IMG/VR virus record: IMGVR_UViG_3300030107_001017
Location: 1-60,325 of that record
Origin: a virus
Lineage: Duplodnaviria; Caudoviricetes
Strand: one strand, 5' to 3'
Length of the DNA stretch: 60,325 nucleotides
Position 1 is the stretch's first letter; each line of letters begins with the position of its first letter. This document shows positions 20,829 through 43,178 of this stretch, piece after piece. A model generated the notes under the pieces. It did not search any database. It was given only the letters and a program-made list of their open reading frames with translations, and had not been told where the DNA came from. Made by a program: the position numbers and the translations under genes.

Positions 20829-20922
20829 AGCTAATAGGTCGCTAATAGGTTAGCCAATAACCACGTTAAAGGGATCTAGATAGAGGGTTCCAGACCTTAC
20901 CCTATTGGCTTATTGGCTATTG
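20829..20922 (+). repeat. Iteron-like element, copy A (candidate origin)
   Basis: AGCTAATA-N5-CTAATA-N6-CCAATAAC-N31-GACC-N4-CCTATTGG-CTTATTG; an inverted copy lies at 43088-43173. Confidence 0.7.
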
Positions 20923-20985
20923 TGAGATATTTTACGAAAACAAAAACGTAAAATTCGTGAGAGCTAATATAGAAACAGCTTACTG

Positions 20986-21246
20986 TTATTCATAGCCCTC
21001 TACCCATTGAAGGAGGGTGGGTTCATCCACAGCAGCGAAGGCTTGACCAGCAGTATCAAATGTTTTATAGGTGCCCCACTTCCTATCTCTATAGTTGTAG
21101 TTTGTGTTATTGAGCAGCACATAGGTTCCATCAGACAATATGGTCAGTGTACGGGTTTCATCAATCACCCAGCTACGTGCTTCTGTCATGGGGTCGATGC
21201 TGTTTAAAACATCGACAGCTCTTTCTATCGTATATTGTTCACTCAT
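20986..21246 (-). CDS. Hypothetical protein
   Basis: Last ORF of the small-gene cluster; coupled to the upstream gene. Confidence 0.7.
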   Translation of the reverse strand: MSEQYTIERAVDVLNSIDPMTEARSWVIDETRTLTILSDGTYVLLNNTNYNYRDRKWGTYKTFDTAGQAFAAVDEPTLLQWVEGYE

Positions 21247-21674
21247 ATTCTATCTCGATCGATGTTCTTCCATCTAAACCTCACATACTCAGTAAGCGCA
21301 GACGACAGGTTACTGCCGTTAAGGCTGACGGCTAAGTACCAGTAATCGTTGAACTCTGGATGAGGTGTCCTAGCTATTTTAATGACATTGTAAATGTCTT
21401 GGTTACCGAGACGGTACACCTGACTACTGTCGTAGACATAGTTCCACTCTAGACCCGCTAGGTATTCTTCATAGCGATCGATTATGCCGTCGTCTTCGCT
21501 AAAGTAGTAGCCAACCTCGTCGATGTCTACGAGTAATTCCTCAAGCAAGCTAACCACACGATTAGTCTCATGAGGAGTGTGGTTGGGGTCTTCCAGTATC
21601 TGCTTGCTTTCTTCTATGTAGGAGGAGACCATTACAGGCCTCCATGTGAAAGTGTCAACTTCTTTGAGTTCCAT
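21243..21674 (-). CDS. Acidic hypothetical protein
   Basis: 143-aa ORF in an operon with Shine-Dalgarno. Confidence 0.7.
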   Translation of the reverse strand: MELKEVDTFTWRPVMVSSYIEESKQILEDPNHTPHETNRVVSLLEELLVDIDEVGYYFSEDDGIIDRYEEYLAGLEWNYVYDSSQVYRLGNQDIYNVIKIARTPHPEFNDYWYLAVSLNGSNLSSALTEYVRFRWKNIDRDRI

Positions 21675-21676
21675 AT

Positions 21677-21883
21677 TTATTCCTTATACTTAAAGCCGAA
21701 AGGCTGATCAATTTGAGTAAGGCCGAGAGCTTCAATAATTACACTTTGAGCATGCTCTAGCTGTTCGTTACCGTTAGGCGTGAGGTTCTCTATTATGAGT
21801 TTTACAGCTTCCGGAACTGCGTTAGGATTTAGTTGAAGGTCTTTATAAACTTCCCACTGCATGGACTGATTATCTTTAGGCAT
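21677..21883 (-). CDS. Hypothetical protein
   Basis: Shine-Dalgarno AAGGGGG; operon packing. Confidence 0.7.
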   Translation of the reverse strand: MPKDNQSMQWEVYKDLQLNPNAVPEAVKLIIENLTPNGNEQLEHAQSVIIEALGLTQIDQPFGFKYKE

Positions 21884-21931
21884 TTTGCCCCCTTAGTTAT
21901 TTAACTTAACTAAGTATAAGGGCGAACGTAT

Positions 21932-22147
21932 TCAATCCTTAGCAACGTTCTTATTATTGGGGTGTTCACCGTAATAGTCTATCACAAACTGATCAATGGA
22001 AGCTGGCAACCCTTTGAGCAATACCTCATTCTTCCACTCTTCAGGTTGGTGAAGGCTCGTAACAGTAAAACGTAAACCGTGCTTGTCTGCCAACTCTAGC
22101 ACACGGTCCACTTTCTTATCATCAATATTATTTAGCGTGAGTTCCAT
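21932..22147 (-). CDS. Hypothetical protein
   Basis: AGGAG Shine-Dalgarno; operon packing. Confidence 0.65.
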   Translation of the reverse strand: MELTLNNIDDKKVDRVLELADKHGLRFTVTSLHQPEEWKNEVLLKGLPASIDQFVIDYYGEHPNNKNVAKD

Positions 22148-22338
22148 GGTTTGTCTCCTTCTGGGTTAAGCACAAGTCTTTCTTTGTGAAAGCCATTCCT
22201 GTTCCTGCTGGTTAGACCGAATACTTTTGTCTTTTCACTGAGCGAACGTTCAGTGCTAACACCACCAGGAATCTGTTTTATTTTGCCTCCTTTTTTCAAG
22301 AAGGCTTCGATGTCTTTGTTGATGTCGTCAGAGTCCAC
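22132..22338 (-). CDS. Small protein with a SutA-like IEAFLKKGGKIKQIP motif (possible RNA polymerase binder)
   Basis: The motif resembles the Pseudomonas SutA RNAP-binding helix; recognised by eye only. Confidence 0.5.
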   Translation of the reverse strand: MDSDDINKDIEAFLKKGGKIKQIPGGVSTERSLSEKTKVFGLTSRNRNGFHKERLVLNPEGDKPWNSR

Positions 22339-22569
22339 CTACATACTCCTGTGTTGTTTTTTCCGTTCTTGACTAAAACGACGATACTTAACAGCGTTGT
22401 GCAACGTCACCCAGTCATTGTGGCTCATGGACTTGGCCATTGATAAGATTGGGGTTTTATCGGTAAACCCATACTTCTCCTTCATCTTTTCCCATACGGC
22501 TACGTGCTTATAGTCTTCGTGTAGTCGCGCGTCGTAGTCGCTGAGCTCGGGATAGTTTATGTCATTCAT
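22339..22569 (-). CDS. Hypothetical protein
   Basis: Operon packing. Confidence 0.65.
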   Translation of the reverse strand: MNDINYPELSDYDARLHEDYKHVAVWEKMKEKYGFTDKTPILSMAKSMSHNDWVTLHNAVKYRRFSQERKKQHRSM

Positions 22570-22777
22570 CTTTTTTCCTTGTATCTGTGTAGTCTAGATC
22601 CTCGATGGCACACGTTACTCGGTCAAGCACAGCTGAGCAAGTTTCAGGTTCGTGAGCACATTCGGGGTCAAAGATCTTGAGCGTGTTATTCATTATAGCA
22701 TCGGCGATGAGCACTAACTCATCCATGTTAAACGAAACCTCTATTTTTCCTCCGTCATTCATATCATCAGTCTCCAT
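22562..22777 (-). CDS. Acidic hypothetical protein
   Basis: Operon packing; AGGAG Shine-Dalgarno. Confidence 0.65.
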   Translation of the reverse strand: METDDMNDGGKIEVSFNMDELVLIADAIMNNTLKIFDPECAHEPETCSAVLDRVTCAIEDLDYTDTRKKDE

Positions 22778-22979
22778 TATTCAAGCTCCTACATTCCCAG
22801 AAAAGCACTGAGAACCAAGCGGTCCATAAGGATAAATTGATAATCACGATAGTGAAAGGAGACCAATCAGTCTCCGTGTTTAAGTAATAGCTGACCCCGC
22901 CACTAGCGGAGGCCGTAACAGCCACCGTCAGTAACAGGAAAACAACCACGGTAAGTAAGTGTCTAACAACCCAGCTCAT
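22767..22979 (-). CDS. Small two-TM membrane protein
   Basis: Two hydrophobic segments. Confidence 0.65.
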   Translation of the reverse strand: MSWVVRHLLTVVVFLLLTVAVTASASGGVSYYLNTETDWSPFTIVIINLSLWTAWFSVLFWECRSLNNGD

Positions 22980-23194
22980 GCGTCGTCCTTGACGATGCTA
23001 CGGTTGAGGTGAGAAGCTAGAAATCGCATGGGTAAAACCTTCACGTCTGCGCAAACGTCGCAACAGCGACCCTCGTCAGCCATGGGCCACGGGTCATTAC
23101 CCGTAGTCCAGTAAACCTTACCCTCAGCAGTGCGTTTATGCTCAATAGGGCCGTCGCATAAACAGCAGGTTAAAACTTCATGTACATCAGTCAT
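22976..23194 (-). CDS. Zn-finger hypothetical protein
   Basis: CCLC...GNDPWP...GRCCDVC. Confidence 0.7.
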   Translation of the reverse strand: MTDVHEVLTCCLCDGPIEHKRTAEGKVYWTTGNDPWPMADEGRCCDVCADVKVLPMRFLASHLNRSIVKDDA

Positions 23195-23273
23195 ACGTGC
23201 TCCTAGTAATTAACTATAACTAGGTTACTAACGATCACCGTTAGTCCCTAGGAACGTTCTTTATAATGGGTAT

Positions 23274-23312
23274 AAAAAAGGCCCAGTGACGCAAGGGGTC
23301 GTCAACTGGGCC
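23274..23312 (-). terminator. Intrinsic terminator
   Basis: GGCCCAGT(T)GAC...GTCACTGGGCC hairpin plus T6 after ORF 23319..23621. Confidence 0.8.
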
Positions 23313-23318
23313 AAGGGG

Positions 23319-23621
23319 CTAAGGCATCATATACATGAAGCCTTTCTTCAAATCGTAACGAATGTCACGAGAGTCAACTAGTCGGGTAGCTAGTGCTTCC
23401 CTTATTGTCTTACCGTCTAGTGACTTATGACGCTCAGCATTGTGCGTAGCACGAGCTGTCTTCTCAGGGTTATCTTTTAAAACCGCGTCAAGGTTAAGAC
23501 CACCGGAGTTAACTTTGGCAGTCGTGGTGCTCGCTATGTCGCCTAAAGATTTAGACGCCTTAGGAGCGGTTGGTGCAGTCGCCTTAGGACTAGCTTTTTT
23601 GGCTGTAGTAGACTTAGTCAT
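23319..23621 (-). CDS. Small basic protein, DIKYD-domain paralogue 2, with an AKP-rich N-terminal tail
   Basis: KVNSGGLNLDA...ARATHNAERH..LDGKTIREAL..RLV...DIRYDLKKGF. Confidence 0.85.
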   Translation of the reverse strand: MTKSTTAKKASPKATAPTAPKASKSLGDIASTTTAKVNSGGLNLDAVLKDNPEKTARATHNAERHKSLDGKTIREALATRLVDSRDIRYDLKKGFMYMMP

Positions 23622-23672
23622 CTAACCATCTTCCTTTGTTACGGGTCACCTTAATTAGTAACCTTGCAAACT

Positions 23673-23701
23673 AGTATATAGTGAAGTAAAGCGAAGTAAA
23701 G
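23673..23701 (-). promoter_or_regulatory. Promoter with tandem CTTTACTT
   Basis: TTTACT-N16-TATACT with a second CTTTACTT in the spacer. Confidence 0.65.
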
Positions 23702-23707
23702 TTATAA

Positions 23708-23881
23708 TTAAGCATGATCAAGTTTTCTTTTTGTCCACTCTTCCCAAACTTTGACTGCTGTAATTCGATCAAGGTCAAAAAAATCTTGTAGCACTTTAGG
23801 TGCACCAAACATGTTGATAGAGCCAGATTCTTTGAGTTCGTCTAAAAACTGCAACAGCTCTTGTTTCTCTTTTTCTTCCAT
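23708..23881 (-). CDS. Conserved small phage protein
   Basis: FLDELKESGSINMFGA motif; start re-assigned to MEEKEK using the AGGAGG Shine-Dalgarno. Confidence 0.75.
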   Translation of the reverse strand: MEEKEKQELLQFLDELKESGSINMFGAPKVLQDFFDLDRITAVKVWEEWTKRKLDHA

Positions 23882-23882
23882 T

Positions 23883-24020
23883 TTAGAACCTCCTGTATGT
23901 AATGGCATCTTGAATGTATTCGTAAATATAATAACCCACTAAACCCCAAACTCCTGCAATAACGCACCACTTGAACAGAAACCACGGAAGCGTCAGAACA
24001 AACCATAGAATATCGATCAT
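23883..24020 (-). CDS. 45-aa membrane peptide (not in ORF track)
   Basis: MIDILWFVLTLPWFLFKWCVIAGVWGLVGYYIYEYIQDAITYRRF; AGGAG Shine-Dalgarno; ATGA overlap with the upstream gene. Confidence 0.7.
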   Translation of the reverse strand: MIDILWFVLTLPWFLFKWCVIAGVWGLVGYYIYEYIQDAITYRRF

Positions 24021-24217
24021 ACTTCTTCTCCTTCTTTAAATGTATCTTCTAACTTGTCAGACATCAAAAAGGCAACAGTTTTGCCAGAAACTATGAGCCA
24101 ACCGTTAGGACTAACTTCGTACACGTTTTCACCTATGAATGTTCTTTCCTCAAAGTATGCCTCGAGGAAAAAATCTAAGTCGTCAAAGGTGTCAAACTTG
24201 ACTGTGTTAAACTTCAT
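24017..24217 (-). CDS. Hypothetical protein
   Basis: Operon packing. Confidence 0.65.
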   Translation of the reverse strand: MKFNTVKFDTFDDLDFFLEAYFEERTFIGENVYEVSPNGWLIVSGKTVAFLMSDKLEDTFKEGEEV

Positions 24218-24785: not shown

Positions 24786-24812
24786 ACGAGCCTCCTTAGT
24801 ATTAATATAATA

Positions 24813-25409: not shown

Positions 25410-25437
25410 TAAAACACTCCAGCGGTGGAATTAGCCC

Positions 25438-25934: not shown

Positions 25935-26402
25935 CTAATGCTCTTCGTATTCCCCCTCTATCAAAGTTCCGGGAGGAAGAACCCCGCCTGTCTCATGATA
26001 TAATTCTTGCATCCGTGCTAGGACTTCATCCTTTGACATAGTGTCTACTCTGTTAACAGTTAGTTCACTCCTGTTAACGTAAAGACCCGCTGCCTTACCC
26101 CTAGCCACTTCAGCAGTTACCGCAGCGGACCACGCTCCATTGCGCATGGCTCCGTCACGAATCTCTTTTAGGTCAACTAGGTGAGTACCGAGAGTGAGTT
26201 CTGCTTTGTCAGCAGCTTTAGTTTGCAGTTCGTGTATGCGGTTTTTGACCAGAGGGTTTTGATCACTAGACAACACAGTCCCAGCTCTACCTGCATTCTT
26301 TTCGCTGTACCCTGCTTGCTGAGCAGCGTCTTTTTTACGCATACCTTTAGCAACGTTCTGAGCAAACTTTTCTTGCTTAGGTGTCAGCTTTTTCTCACTC
26401 AT
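25935..26402 (-). CDS. terS: Terminase small subunit-like HTH protein
   Basis: LTPKQEKFA...AAQQAGYSEKNA...NPLVKNRIHEL. Confidence 0.7.
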   Translation of the reverse strand: MSEKKLTPKQEKFAQNVAKGMRKKDAAQQAGYSEKNAGRAGTVLSSDQNPLVKNRIHELQTKAADKAELTLGTHLVDLKEIRDGAMRNGAWSAAVTAEVARGKAAGLYVNRSELTVNRVDTMSKDEVLARMQELYHETGGVLPPGTLIEGEYEEH

Positions 26403-30209: not shown

Positions 30210-30314
30210 AAGTTTCTCCTTTCTTTATTTAGTAGCGGTTAGCTGTATGCTTGGCCTATAACTACTAAATATAGGGCTATGATATATTGGTTAACTTAAG
30301 AGTATAGGATAATC

Positions 30315-30707
30315 TTAAAGAATATTAGCAACAATGTCTAGCCAATCTTCAAAGGTTATCACAGCGGTTTTTGTCAAGTCTCTTTCACCGCTTGTTAGAA
30401 CATAGAGGGGAAGACAAACTCTGATTGGCTGGTGGTTGTACTTCCATATCAGAACAGGAATAGTTTCTCCACACGCAGCAGTTACCTGTTCCCACCAAAC
30501 ATCTCTATACCAGTTCCCATTTTGATATCGTTTACACTCTATTGTGTGCTTGGGAATATTTAAATCGCCTAAATCTTTTTCTTGATACTGCTCTAGGTTT
30601 CTTTTGACTTTGTAATCAATTCCTTTTTCTTCAAAAAATGTATTGAGTTTATTCGCAATGTCTCTTTCAAAACTTGCACCTTTGTTTCTTGAATTTATTT
30701 TTCCCAT
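30315..30707 (-). CDS. PD-(D/E)XK Holliday junction resolvase-like nuclease
   Basis: SRNKGASFER...GDL...IECKR...WWEQ. Confidence 0.85.
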   Translation of the reverse strand: MGKINSRNKGASFERDIANKLNTFFEEKGIDYKVKRNLEQYQEKDLGDLNIPKHTIECKRYQNGNWYRDVWWEQVTAACGETIPVLIWKYNHQPIRVCLPLYVLTSGERDLTKTAVITFEDWLDIVANIL

Positions 30708-31003
30708 TACTTTTTAGTCTTTATCAGTCTGATCTTTTTAAGTGACATCCAATCACGCATCAACTCGTTAAGAGTTTTAACATTCGCATCTGGGAACTCC
30801 TCTCTGTAGCTTTTGTACACATTATTGTATTCTTCAAGACCTTTATAGTAGTTACCGTTGCCGAGTTTACAGAACCGAATAATCTGCCAAATCCTCTGTT
30901 TAGTAAGACCATACTTCAGTCCGAGATCCTCCATCGTAATGTTGCTATTTGTGTAGGTCATGTGGACATTAAAGTATAGATCTTTTAACTCACGTCTTGT
31001 CAT
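30707..31003 (-). CDS. Sigma70 region-4-like HTH protein
   Basis: TMEDLGLKYGLTKQRIWQII; start placed at MTRREL. Confidence 0.7.
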   Translation of the reverse strand: MTRRELKDLYFNVHMTYTNSNITMEDLGLKYGLTKQRIWQIIRFCKLGNGNYYKGLEEYNNVYKSYREEFPDANVKTLNELMRDWMSLKKIRLIKTKK

Positions 31004-32876: not shown

Positions 32877-33557
32877 TTACGCTGCAGCCTCCCTACACAT
32901 ATTTTGTTTACCGAAATAACACCACTTACACTTGAACTTAGAAGGGTTGGCAGGAAACTCTTCAGCCGTGGTCATAGCGAGTGCTCGTTGATTAAGTTTT
33001 TCTTGTTTGGCTTTTATGCTTTGTGGTGTGTAGATATACCTATCTATCTTACCATGGTCCAAGTACCACATTTCTGTCTGGATACTTTCTAGTTCTGGAT
33101 AACGGTTTAATGCTACGGCACCGTAAAGCTCACACTGCTCTCTGTGTGTTTCTTGATTACCGTCGTAACGTCCTGTCTTAAAATCAATAACACGAGCCTC
33201 TTTAGAGATTCCTTCCTCGTACACAAAGGCGTCTACTTTAGCTCTACCCCATGTGTCTTCTTCAAACCAACCAGTTTTCTGCCAGTTTTTATCTACAGCC
33301 CAGTCACTTTCACAAAACACATGGCCGTGAATGTACAAGTCTCTTAGAACTTCAAACGCCTCTTCAAACTCTTTGAGCTGAGAAGGTATCTCTTCGTAAT
33401 TACCTCTGATATATTCTTCACAGAGTTTGTGCATATCCTTTCCTCTATCCATTGCTGGACTTCCAGGTTCTTTTATCTTTTTGATAAACTTAAACTCTGC
33501 TTGTTTAGGGCACTTTTCAAAACAGCTTAGTCGGCTGTAAGACCATTGTTCAATCAT
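32877..33557 (-). CDS. Cas4/RecB-like PD-(D/E)XK exonuclease
   Basis: WSYSRL..FEKCP, KVD, IDFKTG, Q.ELY, C-terminal CKWC...C. Confidence 0.9.
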   Translation of the reverse strand: MIEQWSYSRLSCFEKCPKQAEFKFIKKIKEPGSPAMDRGKDMHKLCEEYIRGNYEEIPSQLKEFEEAFEVLRDLYIHGHVFCESDWAVDKNWQKTGWFEEDTWGRAKVDAFVYEEGISKEARVIDFKTGRYDGNQETHREQCELYGAVALNRYPELESIQTEMWYLDHGKIDRYIYTPQSIKAKQEKLNQRALAMTTAEEFPANPSKFKCKWCYFGKQNMCREAAA

Positions 33558-34611
33558 GACTACTCCAGGTATATTCGTTGTCTTTCATTCGTCTACTAAA
33601 CCAATCCCAGCATACTTTTCTCCAGTCGCTGGCTTCACACTTGGCTATTTCTAGTATAGCTTCTTTCTGTTCGTCCAACTTCCAGTGCCACCAAGCGTCC
33701 TGTATAGGCACAGCTACATCTGAGAAAAATGGTTCACTGTATTCAATATCCTTTTGAAAAGGAGTCCTGCCCAAGAATTTTAATAAGTCTAAATCCCAGT
33801 CCTCTATGGTGGCGTTCACCATAGGGTAGTATGTTTGGTTTGTGCGGTATGGGTTTGAGTTGATGAGTTCTTTCATTGTGAAAAAATCAAACGCATCGAT
33901 TTCTGAAAACTTGTCCACTAGTTTATTAAACACATCTGTGTAGGCGTGATAGTTGTCGCTCACTTGATAATACTTACCGACACCCACACGCAAAGCCCCA
34001 GCCATGTACTCTTGCAACATTGACATGTGTACAGCGTTGGCCCCATACGCTCCCCAGATGATATCGTTTGACCTATTACAGACCGTCATCTGTAGACGAT
34101 TATCAGCATCAATCTTGAAATAGATAGAAGTATTACACGGTACATCCTTACCGTCTCTGTCTAAATCTGATACTGCGTCCCACATCTGTAAAACACAGCG
34201 TCTATCTGTTGGGTCTTCTTTTAGTCTTTTTATGATTATACTGAGTTGGTCTATGGACTGATCATTTGTCCGGTCTGTCCAGTACTCTCTCCATCTCCAG
34301 CCATACGCACCCCACAGAGTTTTACCGTCATCGCTGTACCGCTTCATACCCTTGTTGAATTGGTAGACATAGTCCAAGTCATGTCTACCCCCAAGCATCC
34401 ACAAACTCTCCATAAAATGAAAGAATGGGTTAGCATCTCTCTGCTCCCAAAACAACACTCTTTCTTGTGGTCTGTGGTATACCGTAGTGACGGGACACTC
34501 AGACTCTCTCACCGGACCATTCCTACTGTCTCTAGTTATACCATGAACCTCGAGAAGTTCTAACCCTCTCAGTAGAGCATCGTGTACGTTTCTTACCTCA
34601 ATTACTTGCAT
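33550..34611 (-). CDS. Thymidylate synthase homologue, probable dUMP hydroxymethylase
   Basis: SRNGPV, RDANPFFHFMESLWMLGGR, GAYG, catalytic PCN, RSND..WGAYGAN (the Asn indicates dUMP specificity). Confidence 0.85.
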   Translation of the reverse strand: MQVIEVRNVHDALLRGLELLEVHGITRDSRNGPVRESECPVTTVYHRPQERVLFWEQRDANPFFHFMESLWMLGGRHDLDYVYQFNKGMKRYSDDGKTLWGAYGWRWREYWTDRTNDQSIDQLSIIIKRLKEDPTDRRCVLQMWDAVSDLDRDGKDVPCNTSIYFKIDADNRLQMTVCNRSNDIIWGAYGANAVHMSMLQEYMAGALRVGVGKYYQVSDNYHAYTDVFNKLVDKFSEIDAFDFFTMKELINSNPYRTNQTYYPMVNATIEDWDLDLLKFLGRTPFQKDIEYSEPFFSDVAVPIQDAWWHWKLDEQKEAILEIAKCEASDWRKVCWDWFSRRMKDNEYTWSSHD

Positions 34612-35383
34612 TTTCTACCCCTTCTTTATATGCTTTTTTCCAACCTATAACCACGTCTTTACGGGGCAAGCCGTTCCAAGCTGTTTTAGTTTGTTTTTCT
34701 ACCACCTTTACACAGGTTGGGTGAAGCTCGTTCAGCCTTTCCGCTCCTGCATTATGTACATCTATCGTTCGCCATTCACTACACCCACCGTCGGCGTTAG
34801 AGGATTTTTGACCTTGTGCGTAGTAGTAACTTACCTTACACGCTTTCCCTCTTCTAAGAAGCTGTAGAGAAATATCAAAATCTTCCATCACCTGTGTTCG
34901 ACCCCACTCTACATCAGAGGGGAAGGCGTCAAGGTTATACCCCAGCACTCGCATATATCTGGTATTCTCAACCGATAGAGTCTCTACACGATTATTACCT
35001 TCTCTAGCACTTACCCCAACATGAGCATAACCTTGATCCATCCACTCATCTAATAACCCGAACAAGGCAGGATACTCACTAGAATCTAGATACCTCAAAT
35101 GCCAGTCTGTCGGGTTTTTACGAATATAAAAACGTAAGTCATCATCTAACATGACAATGCGTGGATCGTCTGTGTTCTCCACTATGTACTTCCTCTTTGG
35201 GCCTATACCTGTCATCCCTTCAGGAATAACCATCTTAGGTGTGTCTGGGTAGTTGTGGTACTGGTCCAGTTCATCTGGGTCTACGACTAGAACCACAGAG
35301 CCGTCAGTTTGCATGCTTTTAGGAAACCAGTTCAAGGTCTCCTGATTATATGCTCTACCCCTTGTGGGGATGTATATCTTCAT
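34598..35383 (-). CDS. TAGT/GREB1-like DNA glycosyltransferase (GT-A)
   Basis: IYIPTRGR...VMLDDDL (DxD)...MEDFDISLQLL..G...GGCS. Confidence 0.8.
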   Translation of the reverse strand: MKIYIPTRGRAYNQETLNWFPKSMQTDGSVVLVVDPDELDQYHNYPDTPKMVIPEGMTGIGPKRKYIVENTDDPRIVMLDDDLRFYIRKNPTDWHLRYLDSSEYPALFGLLDEWMDQGYAHVGVSAREGNNRVETLSVENTRYMRVLGYNLDAFPSDVEWGRTQVMEDFDISLQLLRRGKACKVSYYYAQGQKSSNADGGCSEWRTIDVHNAGAERLNELHPTCVKVVEKQTKTAWNGLPRKDVVIGWKKAYKEGVENASN

Positions 35384-35844
35384 TACTTTTCTCCTGTGCT
35401 GCCGAAGCCGCCTTTGCTTCTGTTAGTTGTTTCACTGAACTCTAATACAGGGGTCCAGTGAACATTCACCACAGGTATAACCACCAGTTGTGCTATTCTT
35501 TGGCCCACTTCTACATGAAACGATTGAGTGCCGTTGTTAGTTAGAGGGACAATCAATTCCCCTTGATAGTCCGAGTCTATTATACCAAGTGTATTAGTCA
35601 GGTGTATCTTTTTTATACCCAAGCTAGAACGAGGGACAAGTAATCCACACAACATAGGGTCATTTAGAAAAATAGCCAGACCAGTGTGGAAAGAGTGAGA
35701 CTCTCCTGGTTTCAGGATATACCCTTCCCCCGAACGTAAGTCCAATCCTGCTGAACCTGAGGTAGCGTAGCCAGGCAGAATCTCTTGACCACACTTATCT
35801 GGTAACTTTGTGTCAATTAGCTTGATTTCTATTTTACTTTGCAT
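35383..35844 (-). CDS. dut: Trimeric dUTPase
   Basis: GSAGLDL, PRSSLG, GIIDSDYQGE, RIAQLV, RSKGGFGSTG; start placed at MQSKIE. Confidence 0.95.
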   Translation of the reverse strand: MQSKIEIKLIDTKLPDKCGQEILPGYATSGSAGLDLRSGEGYILKPGESHSFHTGLAIFLNDPMLCGLLVPRSSLGIKKIHLTNTLGIIDSDYQGELIVPLTNNGTQSFHVEVGQRIAQLVVIPVVNVHWTPVLEFSETTNRSKGGFGSTGEK

Positions 35845-35845
35845 T

Positions 35846-36211
35846 TTAGTTCTCTTTTCTTGTTGATGGAAACTCAGGCTGATCTGGGAACATAGGTTCA
35901 ATTGGTTCTTTTTCCCTTTTTACTAACCGATTTTTAGTTGTATAAGACTCAACTAAAAGAAGATACCTTCTCAGATCTCGTATGTCGTCTAGTATCCCTG
36001 TGTCGCTGGAATCTTGAGAGATTGTGTGGAATATATCCCAACCATCTTTTTTAACCTGATTCTCAATCCTATCCCATTTACGAGCCAGCATCATAAATGC
36101 GCCTACCCCACCACGGTCACGCCAGCTGTCGCCATAGCTTGTTTCTGCTTTCTTCAATTTTTGTACATCTATATCTGCCAATGATTGAATGTCTCTAAAA
36201 TTTGCTGGCAT
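35846..36211 (-). CDS. Nmad1/MazG-like all-alpha nucleotide pyrophosphatase
   Basis: SYGDSW..RGG.G....RKWDRI...DDIRDLRRY. Confidence 0.7.
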   Translation of the reverse strand: MPANFRDIQSLADIDVQKLKKAETSYGDSWRDRGGVGAFMMLARKWDRIENQVKKDGWDIFHTISQDSSDTGILDDIRDLRRYLLLVESYTTKNRLVKREKEPIEPMFPDQPEFPSTRKEN

Positions 36212-36212
36212 A

Positions 36213-37091
36213 CTATCCTCCTTTGTACTTATATTTTGCTCTGGGTCTGCCTTCTCCTAGCCTTACCCTTTCATACTTATCGTATTCACAGAGGCAGTGT
36301 TCAATATCTCTCATCTCTAGTCCGTCTATCCAATATGCTAGATACCTGAGGTGGTCTTGCATCCCCTCCTCAGAAGGATAGGTCTCGATTTCTGTTGAGA
36401 GGTCTAATAAATCTTTCATCTCTTCTGTTAGCTGATGGGTTTTGATAGTTTGATTGACGGGCCTACCGTGTATTCTGTTCAACCCTCTCTGAGCTCCTGG
36501 ACCTGCATTAGCCCACGAGTATATATCGTCCGCGTTTTGTAGGTGCACAGTCCACCTTAGATCACTAACTACCTCATAAGCCATAAACCCACTAAACCCA
36601 GCGTATGGTAGGTATTCTCTCCAGGACTTTTCTAAGGAGTCTCTGTGTAGTGTGGGTTGGTTTTTATAGAGTGGGGTAAGTATCTTATCTACAGTCTGTT
36701 CCACTTTAGTACCGCCCAACGTACCAGTGAGCATATACGCTCCTGTGTAGACCTTATCTCCTCTATCCATTCTTGCCTGCATTATAGACTTGACTCTTTC
36801 AGGCTCCCACTCTTCAGGAAACCCTATCTCCTCTAGTGTTTCTGGCCAGTTAATTTGACGAGCTACCGCCATAGAGAACGGTAGGTTAGGGTGATCCGCA
36901 TAAGGCTCTCGCCAGTTATTCTCTATCCATTGAGTGACTGTATCTAGTTCACGGAACACGTTACAAAAACTATAGGTCTGAAGTATCTCATCATCAGTCC
37001 ATGGCCAACTGTGGCCTTCCTCGCGTTTAAGGTATATTCGGTGTCTTTCATTTATGTAGTAAAAAAACCTTTTTAAATTTTCTTGTACCAT
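36213..37091 (-). CDS. aGPT-Pplase1-type (alpha-glutamyl/putrescinyl thymine pyrophosphorylase clade 1) helical DNA-modification protein
   Basis: ERHRIY..R..G..WPWTDDEIL..Y.FCNVFRELD...FMAYEVVSDL...GPGA.RGL...IEHCLCEYDKY. Confidence 0.85.
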   Translation of the reverse strand: MVQENLKRFFYYINERHRIYLKREEGHSWPWTDDEILQTYSFCNVFRELDTVTQWIENNWREPYADHPNLPFSMAVARQINWPETLEEIGFPEEWEPERVKSIMQARMDRGDKVYTGAYMLTGTLGGTKVEQTVDKILTPLYKNQPTLHRDSLEKSWREYLPYAGFSGFMAYEVVSDLRWTVHLQNADDIYSWANAGPGAQRGLNRIHGRPVNQTIKTHQLTEEMKDLLDLSTEIETYPSEEGMQDHLRYLAYWIDGLEMRDIEHCLCEYDKYERVRLGEGRPRAKYKYKGG

Positions 37092-37540
37092 ACAGGTATC
37101 TCCCTTTTAGTCCATTGGGCAAAATGCTTCTCACCGTTATAATAATTACGGTAAGCTGTAACAGGGTCGTCAGTAACTTTATACTGGTCGGGCATACATT
37201 GTGGGTGTTGTTGTAGCCCTTTACTTTCTATCAAAGGAGGAGGTAGAGACTTAACTATATCAGCTGATTTATGGTTAGCTGACCTACCGTACCGCCAGCA
37301 AAACTCCTCATTTAAACGTAAGGCTAACTCCTTGAGCCATAGCCAGTTATCAAGACTAGCTCCAGACCATAGGGTACACGGGTGTTTGGCGTGTACTGGC
37401 TTATACGGGGCAGTCTGGTTATTAGACCATAAGGCGGTACAAAGCATCTGAGCAGACTCTAATATCATCTTTGATACGTGCTTATCACAGTGTACTTGGG
37501 CACATAATTTAGGTGTGGTATCTAATTTAAATATATTCAT
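37073..37540 (-). CDS. denV: Pyrimidine-dimer DNA glycosylase (T4 endonuclease V-like)
   Basis: MNIF.LD....CAQ.HCDKHV.KMILESAQML...HPC..W...PQCMP...AYRNYY. Confidence 0.8.
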   Translation of the reverse strand: MNIFKLDTTPKLCAQVHCDKHVSKMILESAQMLCTALWSNNQTAPYKPVHAKHPCTLWSGASLDNWLWLKELALRLNEEFCWRYGRSANHKSADIVKSLPPPLIESKGLQQHPQCMPDQYKVTDDPVTAYRNYYNGEKHFAQWTKREIPVWYKKI

Positions 37541-37550: not shown

Positions 37551-37576
37551 TTTACTTTACTTGTAAAGGTAAAGTA
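37551..37576. promoter_or_regulatory. Imperfect palindrome of TTTAC units upstream of the modification operon
   Basis: TTTACTTTAC-TT-GTAAAGGTAAA. Confidence 0.45.
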
Positions 37577-38179: not shown

Positions 38180-39672
38180 ACAAATAAAAACTCCTTGCGT
38201 GTCTTGCCTCTAACTAAATGCAGGTTGTTTTTAGTTCTTGTTACGCCTACATAAAATGCCCTGCATTCATTATCAGGGTTTTTATACAGCTCGTCCCATG
38301 TTTTAGTGGCTAGGTCTGTTAATAACACAACGTTCTCACATTCACCGCCTTTAGCTGCGTGTATAGTGTTCAACCTGATTTGAGAAGACATAAGTTTTTC
38401 ACCATGTCTAAGACACGAAATCACATACTCCCTTTGAGTATTACCGATCAAATCAAAACATTCATGCCATATGCTATCAACTAGTAGACCATGGTCCTCC
38501 TTTAATTGTGCTAGGTTGAGAAGCATATCGTCTTGTACAGTCTTAAGAGTTTTATATCCTCTTTTTACACCTCTATCAACCTTCATGTAGTTATAGATTT
38601 TTCTTATTCTACCAGCCTCTATAGACTTACCTTTACGAAGGTTTTCCCAGTCTCGTATGGCATTTATCAAAGTCTCGGATACTGATGGCTTATTGCCTTT
38701 TAAGTAAACACGACCATTAACCTTTAAATGTTCTTCTACCGCATTTAACAGATAATTATTTCTAGCTAAAAATAACCAGTCTCCCTTACTTATGTCTACA
38801 TGTTCAAAGCTGGTGTGGTGACTGACTGTTCCTTCCTCTTCCTTGGGTTCCCAGACCTTCTCTTTTCTGTTACCTATACGTTTCACGACACCGAGTGCGA
38901 TATCATGTACTTTTCTAGGTACACGATAAGACTGCTTCAAATACGTGTTGTTACCCTTTAAATTGATAAAATGCTCGACGTCTGCACCAGCCCAACGATA
39001 GATAGCTTGATCGTCATCACCAGCTATGTACACATGCTCGACATTTTCAGCTAGTTTCTGTATACACCGCCACTGAAGAGCAGACAAGTCTTGTGCCTCA
39101 TCAACTATCAATACCTCTAAACTAGGTGAACCTCTAGACTGTAAAAACATCTCTAACATGTCTGTGTAGTCTATTAAGAAGTTAGCTTCTTTGTAGTTTT
39201 TGTAGTTCTTGATAAACCAGTCAAAGTGAAGCCATGATATATTTGAGTTAGAACCGTTCCACTGCTCTCTGAACCCAACGCAACGGTTTCTTGCCATGTT
39301 TTCTAGAAATAACATGGTGTCACCCTTACTAGTCAAAGCCAGTAAATTTTCACCGTCCCAAGCTGAACTGATTCTTTCGCCGACGCTCTTACTAAACTCT
39401 CTCAGATTACCTCTATCCATAACATCACTTCTAGATAAAGACAGCCAGTGGTAGCAGAGAGAGTGTAGTGTTCTAAAATAAGTTAGCTCTTCGACATCGT
39501 AACCGAACTTCTCAACTGCTCTAGTAAGAGCCTCGTTCGCGGCTTTTTTAGTAAACGCTACATACCCCAGCTTTTCAGGCCTCACACCTGACTCTAAAAA
39601 TTGCTCAACTTTGTCTAAAAGATACGTAGTCTTGCCCGTGCCAGGAGGGCCAAGTACCACGTTCCACGTCAC
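38176..39672 (-). CDS. UvrD-like SF1 helicase
   Basis: GPPGTGKT, FTKKAA, DEAQD, GDDDQAIY, TIHAAKGGE, YVGVTR. Confidence 0.95.
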   Translation of the reverse strand: MTWNVVLGPPGTGKTTYLLDKVEQFLESGVRPEKLGYVAFTKKAANEALTRAVEKFGYDVEELTYFRTLHSLCYHWLSLSRSDVMDRGNLREFSKSVGERISSAWDGENLLALTSKGDTMLFLENMARNRCVGFREQWNGSNSNISWLHFDWFIKNYKNYKEANFLIDYTDMLEMFLQSRGSPSLEVLIVDEAQDLSALQWRCIQKLAENVEHVYIAGDDDQAIYRWAGADVEHFINLKGNNTYLKQSYRVPRKVHDIALGVVKRIGNRKEKVWEPKEEEGTVSHHTSFEHVDISKGDWLFLARNNYLLNAVEEHLKVNGRVYLKGNKPSVSETLINAIRDWENLRKGKSIEAGRIRKIYNYMKVDRGVKRGYKTLKTVQDDMLLNLAQLKEDHGLLVDSIWHECFDLIGNTQREYVISCLRHGEKLMSSQIRLNTIHAAKGGECENVVLLTDLATKTWDELYKNPDNECRAFYVGVTRTKNNLHLVRGKTRKEFLFV

Positions 39673-41180
39673 AGAGTTTTCTCCTCAAAGTCTTTAGCTT
39701 CTAGCCCACCGTCATCTTCTCTATACTCAAACTCATCTATGTACCAGACATTAGTTCCTCGACCTTTGATGTTAAAGAACTTATGCTTGGCTTTGAGGTC
39801 TCTCAACTTAGAAGCGACTCGGTTAGTCTCCATGTCTGTGAATCTATGCTTAACTAAATACTCTTTAAGGTCTTTTATCCTAAAGTATGTTTTACCATCT
39901 TCTGTGTAAGGTTTACCCAGGAGTATCTCATCTCTTGTATTAGCTTGAGCCATATCAGTACAGAAAGATTCAAGCAACTCCATAAACTGGCCCTCTATGG
40001 TTACATCTTCACTGACTTCAATAACCTCCATACCACTATCCATTAAAGTCTGTATGAGGTTTTGCCAAGCTCTATCGTTCATGCGTGGAGGCATCATATT
40101 GAGTAATTCCATGCATGCACGTTGAAATTTTAGCTGATTCTGGAGCTGTTCTGTATTTAATTCAAGACGTTTATCGTTAATAGATAAGAACCAGAGTGGT
40201 GGTTTTGTGTCTAATTTAGATAAACTAGAGAAAGTGGGCATAGTATTCCCGCCACCAACACCGAACTTACACATCCTGCACTTAGATACATTACAGTATG
40301 ATTTAATAGGCTCGTCACTACACTTGTAGTTATAGTCTTTCTTCTTTAAAGTGCTTATCAAAGTAAGCACCTCTTGAGCAGGTAGGGGAGGGTGAACGTA
40401 CTTACGATTGTACTCCTCTATCTCAGTTTCCCAATTTTCAGGGTCTGACTTTTTAAGATAGACACCTACATTAAATAAACCGTTGTTTCGTGTACCTTCA
40501 GGGAATCCCTGCTCTAACAAAACCTGAAGACACGGCGGTCCTTCTAGCATGTCATTCACTATCGGGACTTCTAACTCAATTAATTCTTGATGGCTTATAC
40601 AACGCTTTTCTACAAACTCTATGAACTTACTCAATGTAAGAGCTTTTCCTTTAATGTCAAAGCCATATCTCAGGGACTCATCTCCTTCGAAATATGGCAT
40701 GTTAAGCCAACTACCTATGTCACCTCGCTCGACTAAAACTTCTCTTTGTTTAGGAAATATCTCTACTCCCCCGTAACCCAGTCCTGCTGCTATTTCTCTT
40801 AATTTATCCTGCATGTCAGCAGCCGGAACTTTTTCCCTAAGGAAACAAAAAACATGTGCGCCACCGCTTTTACTGCGACAAACCACCAGCGGTAGTTTAA
40901 ATTCCTCTATTTTAGCTACTAGCTTTTCTAGGTCTAGTGAGTAGACATCTATGTCTATAGCTCCCCACTTGACTGAATTTTCTTCGTCTATCGGTATGAC
41001 CCCTAGACCCTCTACCCCTGCTACATGGTCTTGCCAATGTTTTAAACTGGCCCCAGCAGTTTTAATTGTTTTTGCTTTTCCTTGTGTTTTCTGTCCTAGC
41101 GAAGCACTTTCTACTTTAAAACTTCCGTGAGCTCGACTCGAGCCATGGAATATTTCATGCAGTTTTTGTGCTATATCCAA
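39669..41180 (-). CDS. AEP-type primase with a PriCT-like domain
   Basis: WGAIDID, RSKSGGAH, EIFPKQ, LNMPY, PPC, EGTRNNGLF. Confidence 0.85.
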   Translation of the reverse strand: MDIAQKLHEIFHGSSRAHGSFKVESASLGQKTQGKAKTIKTAGASLKHWQDHVAGVEGLGVIPIDEENSVKWGAIDIDVYSLDLEKLVAKIEEFKLPLVVCRSKSGGAHVFCFLREKVPAADMQDKLREIAAGLGYGGVEIFPKQREVLVERGDIGSWLNMPYFEGDESLRYGFDIKGKALTLSKFIEFVEKRCISHQELIELEVPIVNDMLEGPPCLQVLLEQGFPEGTRNNGLFNVGVYLKKSDPENWETEIEEYNRKYVHPPLPAQEVLTLISTLKKKDYNYKCSDEPIKSYCNVSKCRMCKFGVGGGNTMPTFSSLSKLDTKPPLWFLSINDKRLELNTEQLQNQLKFQRACMELLNMMPPRMNDRAWQNLIQTLMDSGMEVIEVSEDVTIEGQFMELLESFCTDMAQANTRDEILLGKPYTEDGKTYFRIKDLKEYLVKHRFTDMETNRVASKLRDLKAKHKFFNIKGRGTNVWYIDEFEYREDDGGLEAKDFEEKTL

Positions 41181-41205
41181 TTATCACGCTCCGATTTTGA
41201 TTTGA

Positions 41206-41223
41206 GTGGAGGTTTCCCTCCAC
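41206..41223 (-). other. GAAA-loop hairpin between the SSB-like and primase genes
   Basis: GTGGAGG-GAAA-CCTCCAC with no U tract. Confidence 0.5.
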
Positions 41224-41239
41224 CCATAACACCACTCTA

Positions 41240-42022
41240 CTAAAAAGGAGATTCTTCCTCAGCTTTTCCAAAACTAGCGTCAAAGTTTATGCTTTCTTTG
41301 AACTGTTTGGCGGCTTCGTAGAGAAACATCTCTTCGTCACCTAACTGACCCAGAAGCTCAATGTTCCAGCCGAACCAGTTACCGAGGTCATTAGACTCTG
41401 GTACTGTAGTCAGCTTGTACTTATGGCTATAAATCGGTGGTGTAAACACCCTACCGTCTCCCGCTTTTACCTTGAGCGTAGAAGCCACTGAGTTCCAGGC
41501 TCTCGACTTTTTGAGTTGTGTACCGGACATTGGTATCATAACTGTTTGAAAAGAGTCACCGTCAACAACTAAAGCGTAATGCGTAGCCGACGTCTGGATG
41601 TAATTACCGTTCTCTAACACATCCTGATTCTTATCGTTTTTAGTGGTCTGTTGAAGTATGGCTTGATCAGTGTGTTGTTTTACTAAACCACCACCGTCTT
41701 CTCTAGGTTGCCACTCTAAGTAGTACCTCTTATAAGTAACAGGTATCACTTCACAGCCCTTTTCGCCTTGGAAAAGTTCACGTGTTACCGTGTTAGTTAT
41801 ATCTCCCGCTGCAGAGTCTTTGATGTATTTACCATCACGACTGTTGACTTCAGGGCTAAGTGCCTGTAGTATTTTCAGTCTGGGTACAGTCACATCCTCT
41901 GCACCGATATTCTCTAGGCCACTACCAGCGTCCTCTTCGAACACGGACAATGCTGTTAAGGCTGTAGAGGATTTCTCTGCTACTTCGTTAGTTTTTTCTT
42001 CGTTAGTTTTTTCTTTGGTCAT
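41240..42022 (-). CDS. Putative single-stranded DNA-binding protein
   Basis: VPRLKILQALSPE...MSGTQLKKSRAWN...GNWFGW; acidic C-terminal EEESPF. Confidence 0.7.
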   Translation of the reverse strand: MTKEKTNEEKTNEVAEKSSTALTALSVFEEDAGSGLENIGAEDVTVPRLKILQALSPEVNSRDGKYIKDSAAGDITNTVTRELFQGEKGCEVIPVTYKRYYLEWQPREDGGGLVKQHTDQAILQQTTKNDKNQDVLENGNYIQTSATHYALVVDGDSFQTVMIPMSGTQLKKSRAWNSVASTLKVKAGDGRVFTPPIYSHKYKLTTVPESNDLGNWFGWNIELLGQLGDEEMFLYEAAKQFKESINFDASFGKAEEESPF

Positions 42023-42567
42023 TTTGTCACCTTTATTTTTTGCCCTATATAGACATTAAAGGTTTCTAAAGGCAGGGCGACACCTTTTTCCACCTGCTCC
42101 TTGACAGTAGCTTTGAGAGTCATGGGTTCTACCCACTTCTTCTGTACGAGGTCGTGTCCTTCCTCTTCTAGCTTTGCCATGAGTTCCTGTGCAGCATCGT
42201 TTTCTTCTCTACCGAAACTAGCCGATACTGTATTCTTTATAATATCTCCTAACTCGTTTTCCTGTAGCCATTTGAAAGCTGCATCACGAGTCTCGTCTGT
42301 TATTCTAGCTGAGTAATAATTAGTAACAGAGAGGGTCGTACCATCTGTCAGTTTGATTTCACTGAGTCCTTGCTCTAGGAGAGCGTTAGGCAGTGTGTCC
42401 TCACTTAATTTTCTACGGTCATCTTTCCACAATTTAAGTTCTGCCTCTAGCCTCTCTATCTCTTCGTCCATTTGTGTCAGCTTTCTACTCAGCTGACTAA
42501 TGTTAGTCAGGTCATCTACTTTTATGTCTAACTGACTCTCTTCTTCCATCTCATCTAAGATGCTCAT
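42019..42567 (-). CDS. Coiled-coil replication-associated protein
   Basis: AFKWL.EN.LGDIIKN...VEPMTLKA.VKE motif; adjacent to the SSB-like gene. Confidence 0.7.
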   Translation of the reverse strand: MSILDEMEEESQLDIKVDDLTNISQLSRKLTQMDEEIERLEAELKLWKDDRRKLSEDTLPNALLEQGLSEIKLTDGTTLSVTNYYSARITDETRDAAFKWLQENELGDIIKNTVSASFGREENDAAQELMAKLEEEGHDLVQKKWVEPMTLKATVKEQVEKGVALPLETFNVYIGQKIKVTK

Positions 42568-42878
42568 ATCTTTACCTCCAGCGGATAGTATTTGTATTGA
42601 CGGTTATCCCACTTTAGGAATTTTACACGTCCTTGGTTATATTCGGCAGCTACAGCAGTGCATACGCCTATCGCTGCAGGATCCCCTATAGGTAACAAAA
42701 AGTCCTCGTCGTTAAAACCACGTAATGAATAACGTATGATATGAACCACATCATCAGGGTTCCAAGTGATATTAGGGGATCTATCGTCTAGTATGAAACT
42801 AAAGTCACCATAGTCTTGTGCAGATACGATGTTTTTCTTAGGGTCGGGTTTTTGTACAATATATACTGTTGGATCCAT
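42564..42878 (-). CDS. Conserved hypothetical protein
   Basis: First gene of the replication operon; DFLLPIGDP...LKWD. Confidence 0.75.
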   Translation of the reverse strand: MDPTVYIVQKPDPKKNIVSAQDYGDFSFILDDRSPNITWNPDDVVHIIRYSLRGFNDEDFLLPIGDPAAIGVCTAVAAEYNQGRVKFLKWDNRQYKYYPLEVKI

Positions 42879-43087
42879 CTCTTGTCTCTTAGTTCTTACT
42901 AACCTTCTCGATTTTACCTACTTAATATATAGGCGTATATAAAAAGTTAGGCATCAATAGGACGGTGTGCCACTGCCAAGGCTTTCACATAATAGGCGTC
43001 ACCGTCAACACCTTATCTACTACCCTATTTATTATAAGGTAATTTAATTTTCGTAATACCAACTATGCTTAAATTTTTAAAAACTCT

Positions 43088-43178
43088 CAATAAACTAATA
43101 GGCCATGGTCAAAAATATATGTAAAACAGTGCGTTGGGAAGTTATTGGTAATCGTATTAGGTGGGTATTAGCTATTAG
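43088..43178 (-). repeat. Iteron-like element, copy B (candidate origin)
   Basis: Minus strand AGCTAATA-N5-CTAATA-N6-CCAATAAC-N30-GACC-N4-CCTATTAG-TTTATTG. Confidence 0.7.

Follow-up and report, generated by a model that had tools for sequence, protein, structure and literature searches.

A spacing-conserved array of short boxes forms an inverted pair around the replication arm of uncultured marine phages and may act as a regulatory element

Sets of short sites are known from several phages. In the early/late switch region of phage phi29, the p4 sites, together with p6, form multiple short sites located between or beside divergent promoters, and in phage lambda the two inverted operator sets OL and OR flank a block of genes, with promoters reading outward, and can be joined by OL-OR looping. 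Phage P4 possesses octamer boxes in both orientations at two loci several kb apart, ori and crr, which are bound by alpha, a primase-helicase with a C-terminal winged-helix domain. Arrays of short boxes flanking a spacer are also known from the pac sites of P1 and SPP1, and multi-box arms from the ends of Mu and Tn7. In addition, a study on SPP1 describes oriL and oriR as two binding regions for one protein, which are separated by kilobases and one of which adjoins or lies within the replication genes, and proposes that the protein bound at oriR acts as a fork barrier (PMC3485210). For the phage group considered here, a limited search found no literature on the cis-control of replication or gene timing: PMC9599517 contains no mention of an origin, promoter, inverted repeat, intergenic region or SNF2, the single literature match to the 15-mer TTATTGGCTTATTGG was an unrelated neuroscience paper, and a transcriptome study of a distant relative (PMC12753301) gives gene-level timing in a supplement.

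The stretch of DNA analysed in this study (the window) is a complete phage genome of 60,325 bp, from a group that encodes hypermodified-thymidine genes and a replication module related to that of the abundant HTVC023P-type pelagiphages. It contains two copies, A and B, of an element with a common layout, in which approximately 40 bases that are not conserved separate three direct YYAATA boxes from a pair of inverted TATTRG boxes (Table 1). Copy A (+) reads AGCTAATA-ggtcg-CTAATA-ggttag-CCAATAAC-31 nt-GACC-ttac-CCTATTGG-CTTATTG, and copy B (-) reads AGCTAATA-cccac-CTAATA-cgatta-CCAATAAC-30 nt-GACC-atgg-CCTATTAG-TTTATTG. An initial sequence-only reading had reported these strings as two inverted copies with conserved spacing, and both were recovered as described. 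A 33-nt left-arm pattern (three mismatches or fewer) matched the window only at 20829-20861 (+) and 43141-43173 (-) and had no match in 100 dinucleotide shuffles. The density of CYAATA boxes reaches 6 per 150 bp at both copies, against 0.19 expected, and no other 150-bp segment of the genome holds more than two. The full unit exceeds the length of about 95 bp initially assigned to the element and can include an outer inverted box, an AT-rich tract and a distal forward box. The outer box and box 1 of copy A constitute the dyad TATTAC-N10-CTAATA. The tract of copy B includes a box (43053-43058) that reads TATTAC on the strand of the element, and a TATAAT hexamer lies 16 nt downstream of it; this was judged by eye to be a promoter, although the promoter scans did not report it. 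Outside copy A there is a lone half-site resembling the right arm, and the relative G005 has a similar box pair at the equivalent place. Isolated dyads of the form TATTRN-N8-11-NYAATA, apart from the two copies, number 4-9 per genome compared with 1.6-4.5 in simulated sequences, a modest excess at most.

Table 1. Positions of the element, its neighbouring genes and the candidate binding proteins in the window
Feature	Position	Strand	Remark
Non-coding block holding copy A	20508..20993	.	most conserved stretch among strain-level relatives
Lone right-arm-like half-site CTATTGGCTTATTGAC	20607..20622	+	210 bp outside copy A
Outer inverted box TATTAC of copy A	20815..20820	+	10 bp outside box 1
Copy A core: CTAATA, CTAATA, CCAATA, 43-nt spacer, TATTGG ct TATTGG	20831..20916	+	box starts 11 and 12 bp apart
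Copy A AT-rich tract 3' of right arm	20917..20985	+	70% A+T in first 50 nt; conserved block stops at 20985
Copy A distal forward box CTAATA	20964-20969	+	terminates AT-rich tract
Candidate binder 1: 98-aa protein, sigma70-region-4.2-like HTH	30707..31003	-	encoded after DNA polymerase gene
Candidate binder 2: AEP primase	39669..41180	-	PriCT-like motif, 4 conserved cysteines, C-terminal winged-helix-like domain
Replication operon gene 1, Pam3 gp32-like	42564..42878	-	right-arm side of copy B
Copy B AT-rich tract 3' of right arm	43037..43086	-	78% A+T
Copy B core: CTAATA, CTAATA, CCAATA, 42-nt spacer, TATTAG tt TATTGA	43087..43171	-	
Copy B additional direct box CTAATA	43173..43178	-	abuts core, SNF2 side
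SNF2-family helicase gene	43261..44703	+	reads away from copy B left arm

The same architecture was recovered as an inverted pair when related genomes were searched. Exactly two copies, on opposite strands and 20-24.5 kb apart, were present in all five complete related genomes, and a sixth contig (G009) also held both; the search pattern, drafted after the copies had been seen, gave no match in three GenBank outgroups or in 100 simulations each of the window and of G006. Loose scans for box density were unspecific in A+T-rich relatives, and the architecture pattern was therefore used instead. The inverted pairing around the replication arm is kept in six of the seven genomes or contigs examined for both copies; in G007, copy B is present and a canonical copy A was not found, with the contig breaking near the expected site. 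Among a set of 80 loci, 15 carry the element, in every case on the gene strand and 884-1241 bp upstream of the gp34-like gene. These represent 15 of the 16 closest relatives, the remaining one having one box with a single mismatch, and the 64 more distant loci were without it (0/64). No match to GenBank phages was obtained by megablast (20000-24000) or blastn (19700-21000). A scan of IMG/VR with TTATTGGCTTATTGGC returned 43 stretches, of which only four (L018, L021, L022 and L036) were true elements, the others being rejected as coding DNA, other repeats or chance. In DSL-LC04, no alternative motif common to its divergent gap and other gaps was detected.

The geometry of the element is strongly maintained. 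As had been noted from the two copies in the window, boxes and spacings are conserved and spacers are not, with identities over 18 copies from relatives of 0.84 in the boxes and 0.40 in the central spacer, a box 1 to box 2 distance of 11 bp in 18/18 copies and a core length of 83-87 bp. The GACC shared by the two window copies, however, is absent from most relatives. Each copy comprises 5-7 boxes at fixed spacing, and each box is 6 bp, far shorter than typical iterons; the outer inverted box occurs in 11/19 copies, including all six A copies, and the distal forward box in 14/19. The 50 nt located 3' of the right arm have a mean A+T content of 74%, above the values of the source DNA (62%) and the central spacer (59%). 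The left, three-box arm points outward, to SNF2 or to the late/packaging genes, in 10 of 10 copies from five genomes, and the right arm and AT-rich tract point to the replication arm. Proteins neighbouring the element are only 42-72% identical across genomes. In a strain-level comparison that drew on contigs of marine metagenomes, the copy A block differed at 2/457 and 4/486 letters (0.4-0.8%) and the adjoining coding DNA at 18/542 and 59/836 letters, with differences of 2.6-7% in the flanking genes. The conservation of boxes, spacing and position, together with that of the copy A block among strains, strongly supports the earlier suggestion that the element is probably under selection for protein binding, and it would represent a strongly constrained, clade-wide control region in uncultured marine phages of approximately 60 kb. 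Two other kinds of element were not supported. For an initiation hairpin in single-stranded DNA, folding gave z-scores of -1.8/-1.3 in copy A and +1.7/+1.1 in copy B, with no stable fold common to both. For a structured RNA, the sole Rfam match at E<=1 in either region was a chance-level snoRNA (E 0.81) outside the element.

The gene content of the region between the copies (20986-42878), which includes an AEP primase, a UvrD-like helicase, DNA polymerase A and thymidine-hypermodification genes, agrees with the initial view that they bracket the early/replication/modification arm. Gene positions likewise place copy B in a divergent gap, as proposed, with the SNF2 gene (+) on one side and the replication operon (-, from 42878 downward) on the other, in which the gp32-like gene is followed by gp33-like, gp34-like, AEP primase and helicase genes. 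Copy A is located just past the final gene of the early arm, which is transcribed leftward. In G002, copy A is adjoined by a hairpin and then a T-run, a terminator as judged by eye; a separate repeat-rich or GATC-rich non-coding stretch adjoins it in the window, G005 and G006. The box architecture could help in orienting and annotating genomes of this kind, since it lies where the early and late arms have their borders. The restriction to two copies per genome, in inverted orientation and at the two borders of one and the same arm in every case, would be compatible with boundary elements, either bridged by the same protein so that the 20-24 kb arm is looped out, or acting as a roadblock or insulator against early-late read-through without direct control of promoters. 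The position of copy A relative to the early genes, the terminator-like hairpin beside it in G002 and the precedent of OL-OR looping in lambda point in this direction. However, the promoter register of copy B, described below, suggests local action, and we consider boundary elements improbable.

The surroundings of copy A also bear on packaging. In G002 and G008, copy A is found approximately 100 bp upstream of terS-terL, and its arrays of short boxes flanking a spacer recall the pac sites of P1 and SPP1, as would be expected of a pac site for the small terminase. However, terS is located approximately 5-10 kb from copy A, within the early arm, in the window, G005 and G006, copy B in the gap between SNF2 and the replication operon is never near terS and shows no packaging link, and two inverted sites would launch packaging in opposite directions, making this function very unlikely. 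Inversion of the arm had been suggested as well, and the inverted orientation of the copies, with multi-box arms reminiscent of the ends of Mu or Tn7, could indicate recombination sites or the ends of a transposable unit. This suggestion was not upheld, as the orientation of the arm relative to the late genes is constant in 6/6 genomes with both copies, no change of strand is seen at the 11 contig joints that were listed in four metagenome runs, and no integrase, invertase or transposase family was detected in the ORFs scanned, which included only part of the small ORFs; a recombination function is hardly credible.

Copy B is fixed in register between two divergent sigma70-like promoters. One of them, with a score of 11/12, begins 64-69 bp past the right arm in 10 of 13 B copies, the AT-rich tract leading into it, and an outward promoter begins 7 or 20 bp from box 1 in 9/13; in G002, both B promoters take the form YYAATA-N3/4-TTTACT. 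Among the A copies, a sigma70-like promoter was found near the left arm in only one of six, and none was found past the right arm in the six scanned. The best reading of the element, which we put forward tentatively, is a multi-site regulatory array, namely an operator or enhancer of a transcription switch, and we infer that a protein binds it. Each copy is an array of approximately 190 bp of short duplex-DNA boxes with the core YAATA, on which several molecules of one sequence-specific phage protein may assemble. In the outward arm, the outer inverted box precedes three direct boxes in helical phase; two inverted boxes, 8 bp apart, are located about 45-50 bp further in, followed by the AT-rich tract and one forward box. 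The two arrays mark both borders of the replication/early arm, that of copy B lying between the SNF2-side and replication-operon promoters, with each -35 preceded by a box at a distance of a few bp, and that of copy A at the head of the late/packaging genes, and their occupancy could affect transcription from these borders. Against this reading, sigma70-like promoters are scarce at the A copies, which nevertheless retain the right arm, the AT-rich tract and also the distal box, features that a pure promoter-operator function would not need.

The retention at copy A of the whole unit, including its right half, with no promoter found past the right arm, instead favours a twin or bipartite replication origin, a serious rival that was already proposed in the sequence-only reading and that we regard as possible, although unlikely. 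The arrays would then bind an initiator, for instance the AEP primase by means of the winged-helix-like domain at its C terminus, and unwinding would take place in the AT-rich tract. One copy would fire beside the replication operon, and its inverted counterpart would serve as another origin, as a helper in cis or as a polar fork barrier that triggers the switch to concatemer synthesis. Copy B abuts the replication operon, and the phased short boxes are present in both orientations and flank the AT-rich tract. Precedents for such an arrangement are P4 ori and crr and, in SPP1, two regions bound by the origin protein (PMC3485210). For the predicted model of the primase C-terminal domain, which spans the last ~180 residues, matches to winged-helix structures are weak (5vfx, probability 0.97, E 0.08) and below significance. 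However, the B copies are in fixed register with two promoters, A+T richness is expected of promoter regions too, and outgroups that encode an orthologous primase (39-47% identity) do not have the element in the equivalent gap. The repeat-rich or GATC-rich stretch beside copy A in the window, G005 and G006 is another ori or pac candidate. In five genomes, GC and AT skew reflect the orientation of the genes and do not shift at either copy, so the skew check gave no origin signal, although with nearly all genes on one strand skew is uninformative as an origin test. Twin origins are not the best-supported function of the pair. A further combination would be a long-range device in which one protein bridges A and B into a 20-24 kb loop around the replication arm, B is the firing origin and A a polar fork barrier, and occupancy of the barrier switches on concatemer synthesis and the late/packaging promoter. 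If true, this decidedly improbable device would couple replication, late transcription and packaging through one pair of cis-elements, and, for a lytic phage, a pair acting at long range would be an unusually large-scale case of paired sites for regulation or replication initiation.

For the regulatory array, the likeliest binder would be the clade-specific 98-aa HTH protein resembling sigma70 region 4, whose recognition helix reads SKQRxWQI. Of the 11 genomes or contigs with the element, 10 encode a full-length orthologue, the exception being a fragment that is 54% complete, and no full-length orthologue was found in eight outgroups; tblastn gave no match at E<=1e-3 in three outgroups, and in four of the other five there were only HTH-only matches of 13-23 bits. 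This co-occurrence spans one clade and therefore amounts to about one evolutionary event, and thymidine hypermodification and other genes show the same distribution. The profile of the protein matches RpoD region 4.2 (E 5e-5) and Pfam Mor at 17.9 bits, below the curated cut-off of 24.9, while its predicted structure (pLDDT 88) returned nothing at E<=0.001 with Foldseek, only non-significant generic HTH matches. The AEP primase is the second candidate; Foldseek found no match at E<=0.001 for its C-terminal model, and comparison with PDB and NCBIfam gave nothing further than the AEP domain. With a target of 190 bp and two named candidate proteins, binding can be tested in vitro without a cultured host.

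Compared with known systems, the element resembles the phi29 switch region and the lambda operators in having several short sites between or beside divergent promoters. It differs from them in its 6-bp boxes, 3+2 arrangement and fixed gap of 45-50 bp, in the lack of an adjacent repressor gene, in the distance of 20-24 kb between the sets, and in that copy A is mostly without sigma70-like promoters at a fixed distance. With SPP1 it shares two clusters of sites on one phage genome, one of them by the replication genes; however, the box sequences and layout are unrelated, and SPP1 employs the origin-binding protein G38P with a DnaB-type helicase and a loader, genes that were not found in the window. 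P4 is comparable in that its boxes are likewise short, face both ways and are grouped at two loci separated by several kb. However, P4 alpha is another type of primase, fused to a helicase, whereas the AEP primase of the window has no helicase domain and its winged-helix assignment is weak. Mor/C of phage Mu and the small sigma-region-4-type activators (PF08765, PF04545) are comparable in the size of the candidate binder (approximately 100 aa), its region-4-type HTH, and the TATT/AATA-type dyads upstream of -35 positions, but the arrays described here contain 5-7 boxes rather than one dyad per promoter.

The element is best described, from its sequence, as a duplex-DNA array of multiple sites that is strongly selected and predicted to bind protein. 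Its box layout in the window, proposed earlier by a sequence-only reading, was confirmed at both copies, each comprising three direct YYAATA boxes (boxes 1 to 3, the left arm), a spacer, and two inverted TATTRG boxes (the right arm). A 33-nt left-arm pattern allowing up to three mismatches matched solely at 20829-20861 (+) and 43141-43173 (-), and in none of 100 shuffles. CYAATA boxes reached six per 150 bp at both copies, against 0.19 expected and at most two in every other 150-bp window. Across 18 copies, box 1 and box 2 were always 11 bp apart (18/18), with 12-14 bp between boxes 2 and 3, 45-50 bp separating box 3 from the first inverted box, 8-9 bp between the inverted boxes, and a total length of 83-87 bp. 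Mean pairwise identity was 0.84 in the boxes versus 0.40 in the central spacer, bearing out the earlier claim that boxes and spacings are conserved and spacers are not. The proposed extent of about 95 bp held for the layout but not for the length, as the unit is longer: an outer inverted box lies 9-10 bp beyond box 1 in 11/19 copies, all six A copies among them, the first 50 nt past the right arm average 74% A+T versus 62% in the source DNA (19 copies), and an additional forward box lies 47-63 nt beyond the right arm in 14/19. No prior description of the element was found in the open-access full-text literature. Two other candidates were rejected: single-strand folding, the fold not being common to copies A and B, and a structured RNA, for which Rfam returned a single match, at chance level (E 0.81) and lying outside the element.

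No DNA-level match to the element region was found among GenBank phages, the closest named relatives by protein being DSL-LC04, 023Pt_psg01, and MW202510 (primase identity 40-48%); closer relatives are present in IMG/VR. A relaxed architecture pattern (three NYAATA boxes, 28-52 nt, two TATTRN boxes) was found in 15 of 80 loci retrieved with the gp34-like protein, always on the gene strand and 884-1241 bp upstream of the gene for this protein (15/15). These loci account for all but one of the 16 closest relatives, and that one has a single mismatch in one box; the pattern occurred at no position in the 64 more distant loci. Related genomes conserve the element as two inverted copies: a stricter pattern gave exactly two matches per genome, on opposite strands, in all five complete genomes (window, G002, G005, G006, and G008, with separations of 22.3, 20.5, 21.7, 24.5, and 20.0 kb, respectively), and none in three GenBank outgroups or in genomes simulated for the window and for G006 (100 each). 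A sixth contig, G009, also carries both copies, inverted and 22.6 kb apart, and contig G007 carries copy B only, breaking near the site expected for copy A. The architecture pattern was drawn up post hoc, with the copies already seen; this is offset because the left arm alone gives two matches per genome versus 0.01-0.04 expected, and the 64 distant loci form an independent negative control.

The window record is a complete virus of 60,325 bp (G+C 42.7%), with nearly all genes on the minus strand. The thymidine-hypermodification genes imply that the T-rich boxes may bear modified bases in virion DNA. The product of the 68-aa SutA-domain ORF is likely an early protein aimed at host RNAP, and the domain hints at a gammaproteobacterial host.

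Features of the window, with observations on related genomes where available
Feature	Position	Strand	Remarks
Lysis, virion, ejection-protein genes	60290 down to 44700		
496-aa ORF	44700-46190		Adjoins SNF2 gene; no Pfam, PHROG, or NCBIfam match; no tblastn match in compared genomes
SNF2-family helicase gene	43261-44703	+	Single plus-strand gene
Copy B	43087-43171	-	
Arm called early/replication/modification in the sequence-only reading	42878 down to 20986		Pam3 gp32-, gp33-, and gp34-like genes, AEP primase, UvrD-like helicase, DNA polymerase A; also exonuclease, thymidylate-synthase-like enzyme, 5-hmdU DNA kinase, dUTPase, small terminase, numerous small ORFs
AEP primase	39669-41180	-	
155-aa conserved protein of unknown function	37073-37540		Within early arm; first gene between copy B and SNF2 gene in G002 (30302-30787) and G008 (~41424-41915)
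Thymidine-hypermodification set	33550-37091		Thymidylate-synthase-like enzyme, glucosyltransferase-like PHROG, dUTPase, 5-hmdU DNA kinase (PF18723)
HTH protein, candidate binder	30707-31003		98 aa; HTH matches RpoD region 4.2, E 5e-5
Small terminase gene	25935-26402		Within early arm, as in G005 and G006
68-aa ORF	22132-22338		SutA RNA-polymerase-binding domain (PF20661, E 1e-10)
86-aa ORF	20986-21246		Adjoins copy A
Copy A	20831-20916	+	
Non-coding stretch	20196-20985		
79-aa ORF, 1022-aa ORF, large terminase, portal, capsid, tail genes	20195 down to 1		
1022-aa ORF	16635-19703		Upstream of terL; no Pfam, PHROG, or NCBIfam match; no tblastn match in compared genomes
Periodic repeats, 51-nt and 66-nt	65-2700		Long runs within tail-fibre-like ORFs at record start

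The same orientation holds in all five genomes (10/10 copies): outermost is the three-box arm, pointing to the SNF2 gene at copy B and to the late/packaging genes at copy A, and innermost, on the replication-arm side, are the two-box arm and its AT-rich tract. The suggestion that the copies are paired sites for inversion did not hold, the arm having one orientation in all genomes and the 11 listed contig joints showing no strand switch. The ORFs that were scanned yielded no recombinase family, and we give hardly any credence to the copies as recombination sites. A boundary or looping role for the inverted pair is improbable. In G002 and G008, the small terminase gene (terS) is directly upstream of terL (8988-9551 and 20618-21148, respectively), with copy A some 100 bp upstream of the pair. 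Outward of copy A in the window, G005, and G006, where terS has moved into the early arm, is a long non-coding stretch, GATC-rich in all three and repeat-rich in the window. With the terminase genes so placed, the copies themselves are very improbable as pac sites. Beside copy A, a 26-nt unit (ACAACGGATCATGGTTTACAGAAGAT type) occurs four times at non-coding positions 20330-20660, where GATC/TGATCA, CCATGG, and GGACC motifs are also numerous; the equivalent place is GATC- and GGACC-rich in G005 and G006, not in G002 and G008. This repeat-rich stretch could be an origin or pac region.

An inward sigma70-like promoter with 11/12 matches (TTTACT or TTTATT, 17 bp, then TATGAT, TATCAT, or TATAAT) starts 64-69 bp past the right arm in 10 of 13 B copies, and nine of the 13 have an outward promoter whose start is 7 or 20 bp away from box 1. 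By the same criteria, only one of six A copies has an outward promoter, and none of the six has a comparable promoter past the right arm, G005 showing a weak match at 145 bp. The window's own two copies scored low in consensus promoter scans; by eye, TATTAC-16 nt-TATAAT follows the AT tract of its copy B. A CCYTATATAG-like motif, seen by eye 49-103 bp outside the outer box in the A copies of all five complete genomes (window 20703-20712; equivalent sites in G002, G005, G006, and G008), may belong to a late promoter. TTTACT, also the -35-like hexamer of promoters flanking copy B in relatives, recurs as TTTACT-N4-6-TTTACT pairs in minus-strand intergenic gaps (20215-20335, 23680-23700, and 37555-37575).

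One candidate binder, the HTH protein, gave a Pfam Mor match below threshold, a confident model (pLDDT 88), and no significant Foldseek match; some of its 116 metagenomic homologues are labelled YlxM/UPF0122 or carry Sigma70_r4. Full-length orthologues occurred in 10 of 11 genomes or contigs bearing the element and in none of eight outgroups, a co-occurrence that is a single-clade correlation; of the five further genomes among these outgroups, four gave nothing beyond HTH-only matches of 13-23 bits. Our favoured reading, held tentatively and at somewhat under an even chance, is that the element is a regulatory switch region, because the promoter register is fixed at copy B, the outward-facing arm heads the SNF2 and late units, and a region-4-type HTH protein co-occurs with the element.

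A strain 99% related to the window differs from it at nine positions within the 383-bp gap; five of these are in degenerate box flanks (two boxes), and the TATT cores are unchanged. In strain-level relatives from metagenome contigs, block 20508-20993 has 2/457 and 4/486 differences versus 18/542 and 59/836 in the adjoining coding DNA. Strains from metagenome runs X11 and X15 have 29 nt in place of the 86-aa ORF, and X8 has 11 nt; the breakpoint is exactly where the conserved non-coding block ends.

The main rival to the regulatory switch, that the copies form a twin or bipartite replication origin, appears rather unlikely. A complete unit, AT-rich tract included, is retained at copy A with no promoters nearby, and copy B abuts the replication operon, both in favour of an origin; GC skew, proposed earlier as a check, tracks gene orientation. 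The primase, a second candidate binder, combines an AEP domain with a PriCT-like motif and four conserved cysteines, and the best fold matches of its modelled C-terminal domain (pLDDT 79-91) were winged-helix DNA binders, with non-significant scores. A precedent for an origin is offered by SPP1, in which the origin protein has two sites, the second proposed to be a fork barrier (PMC3485210).
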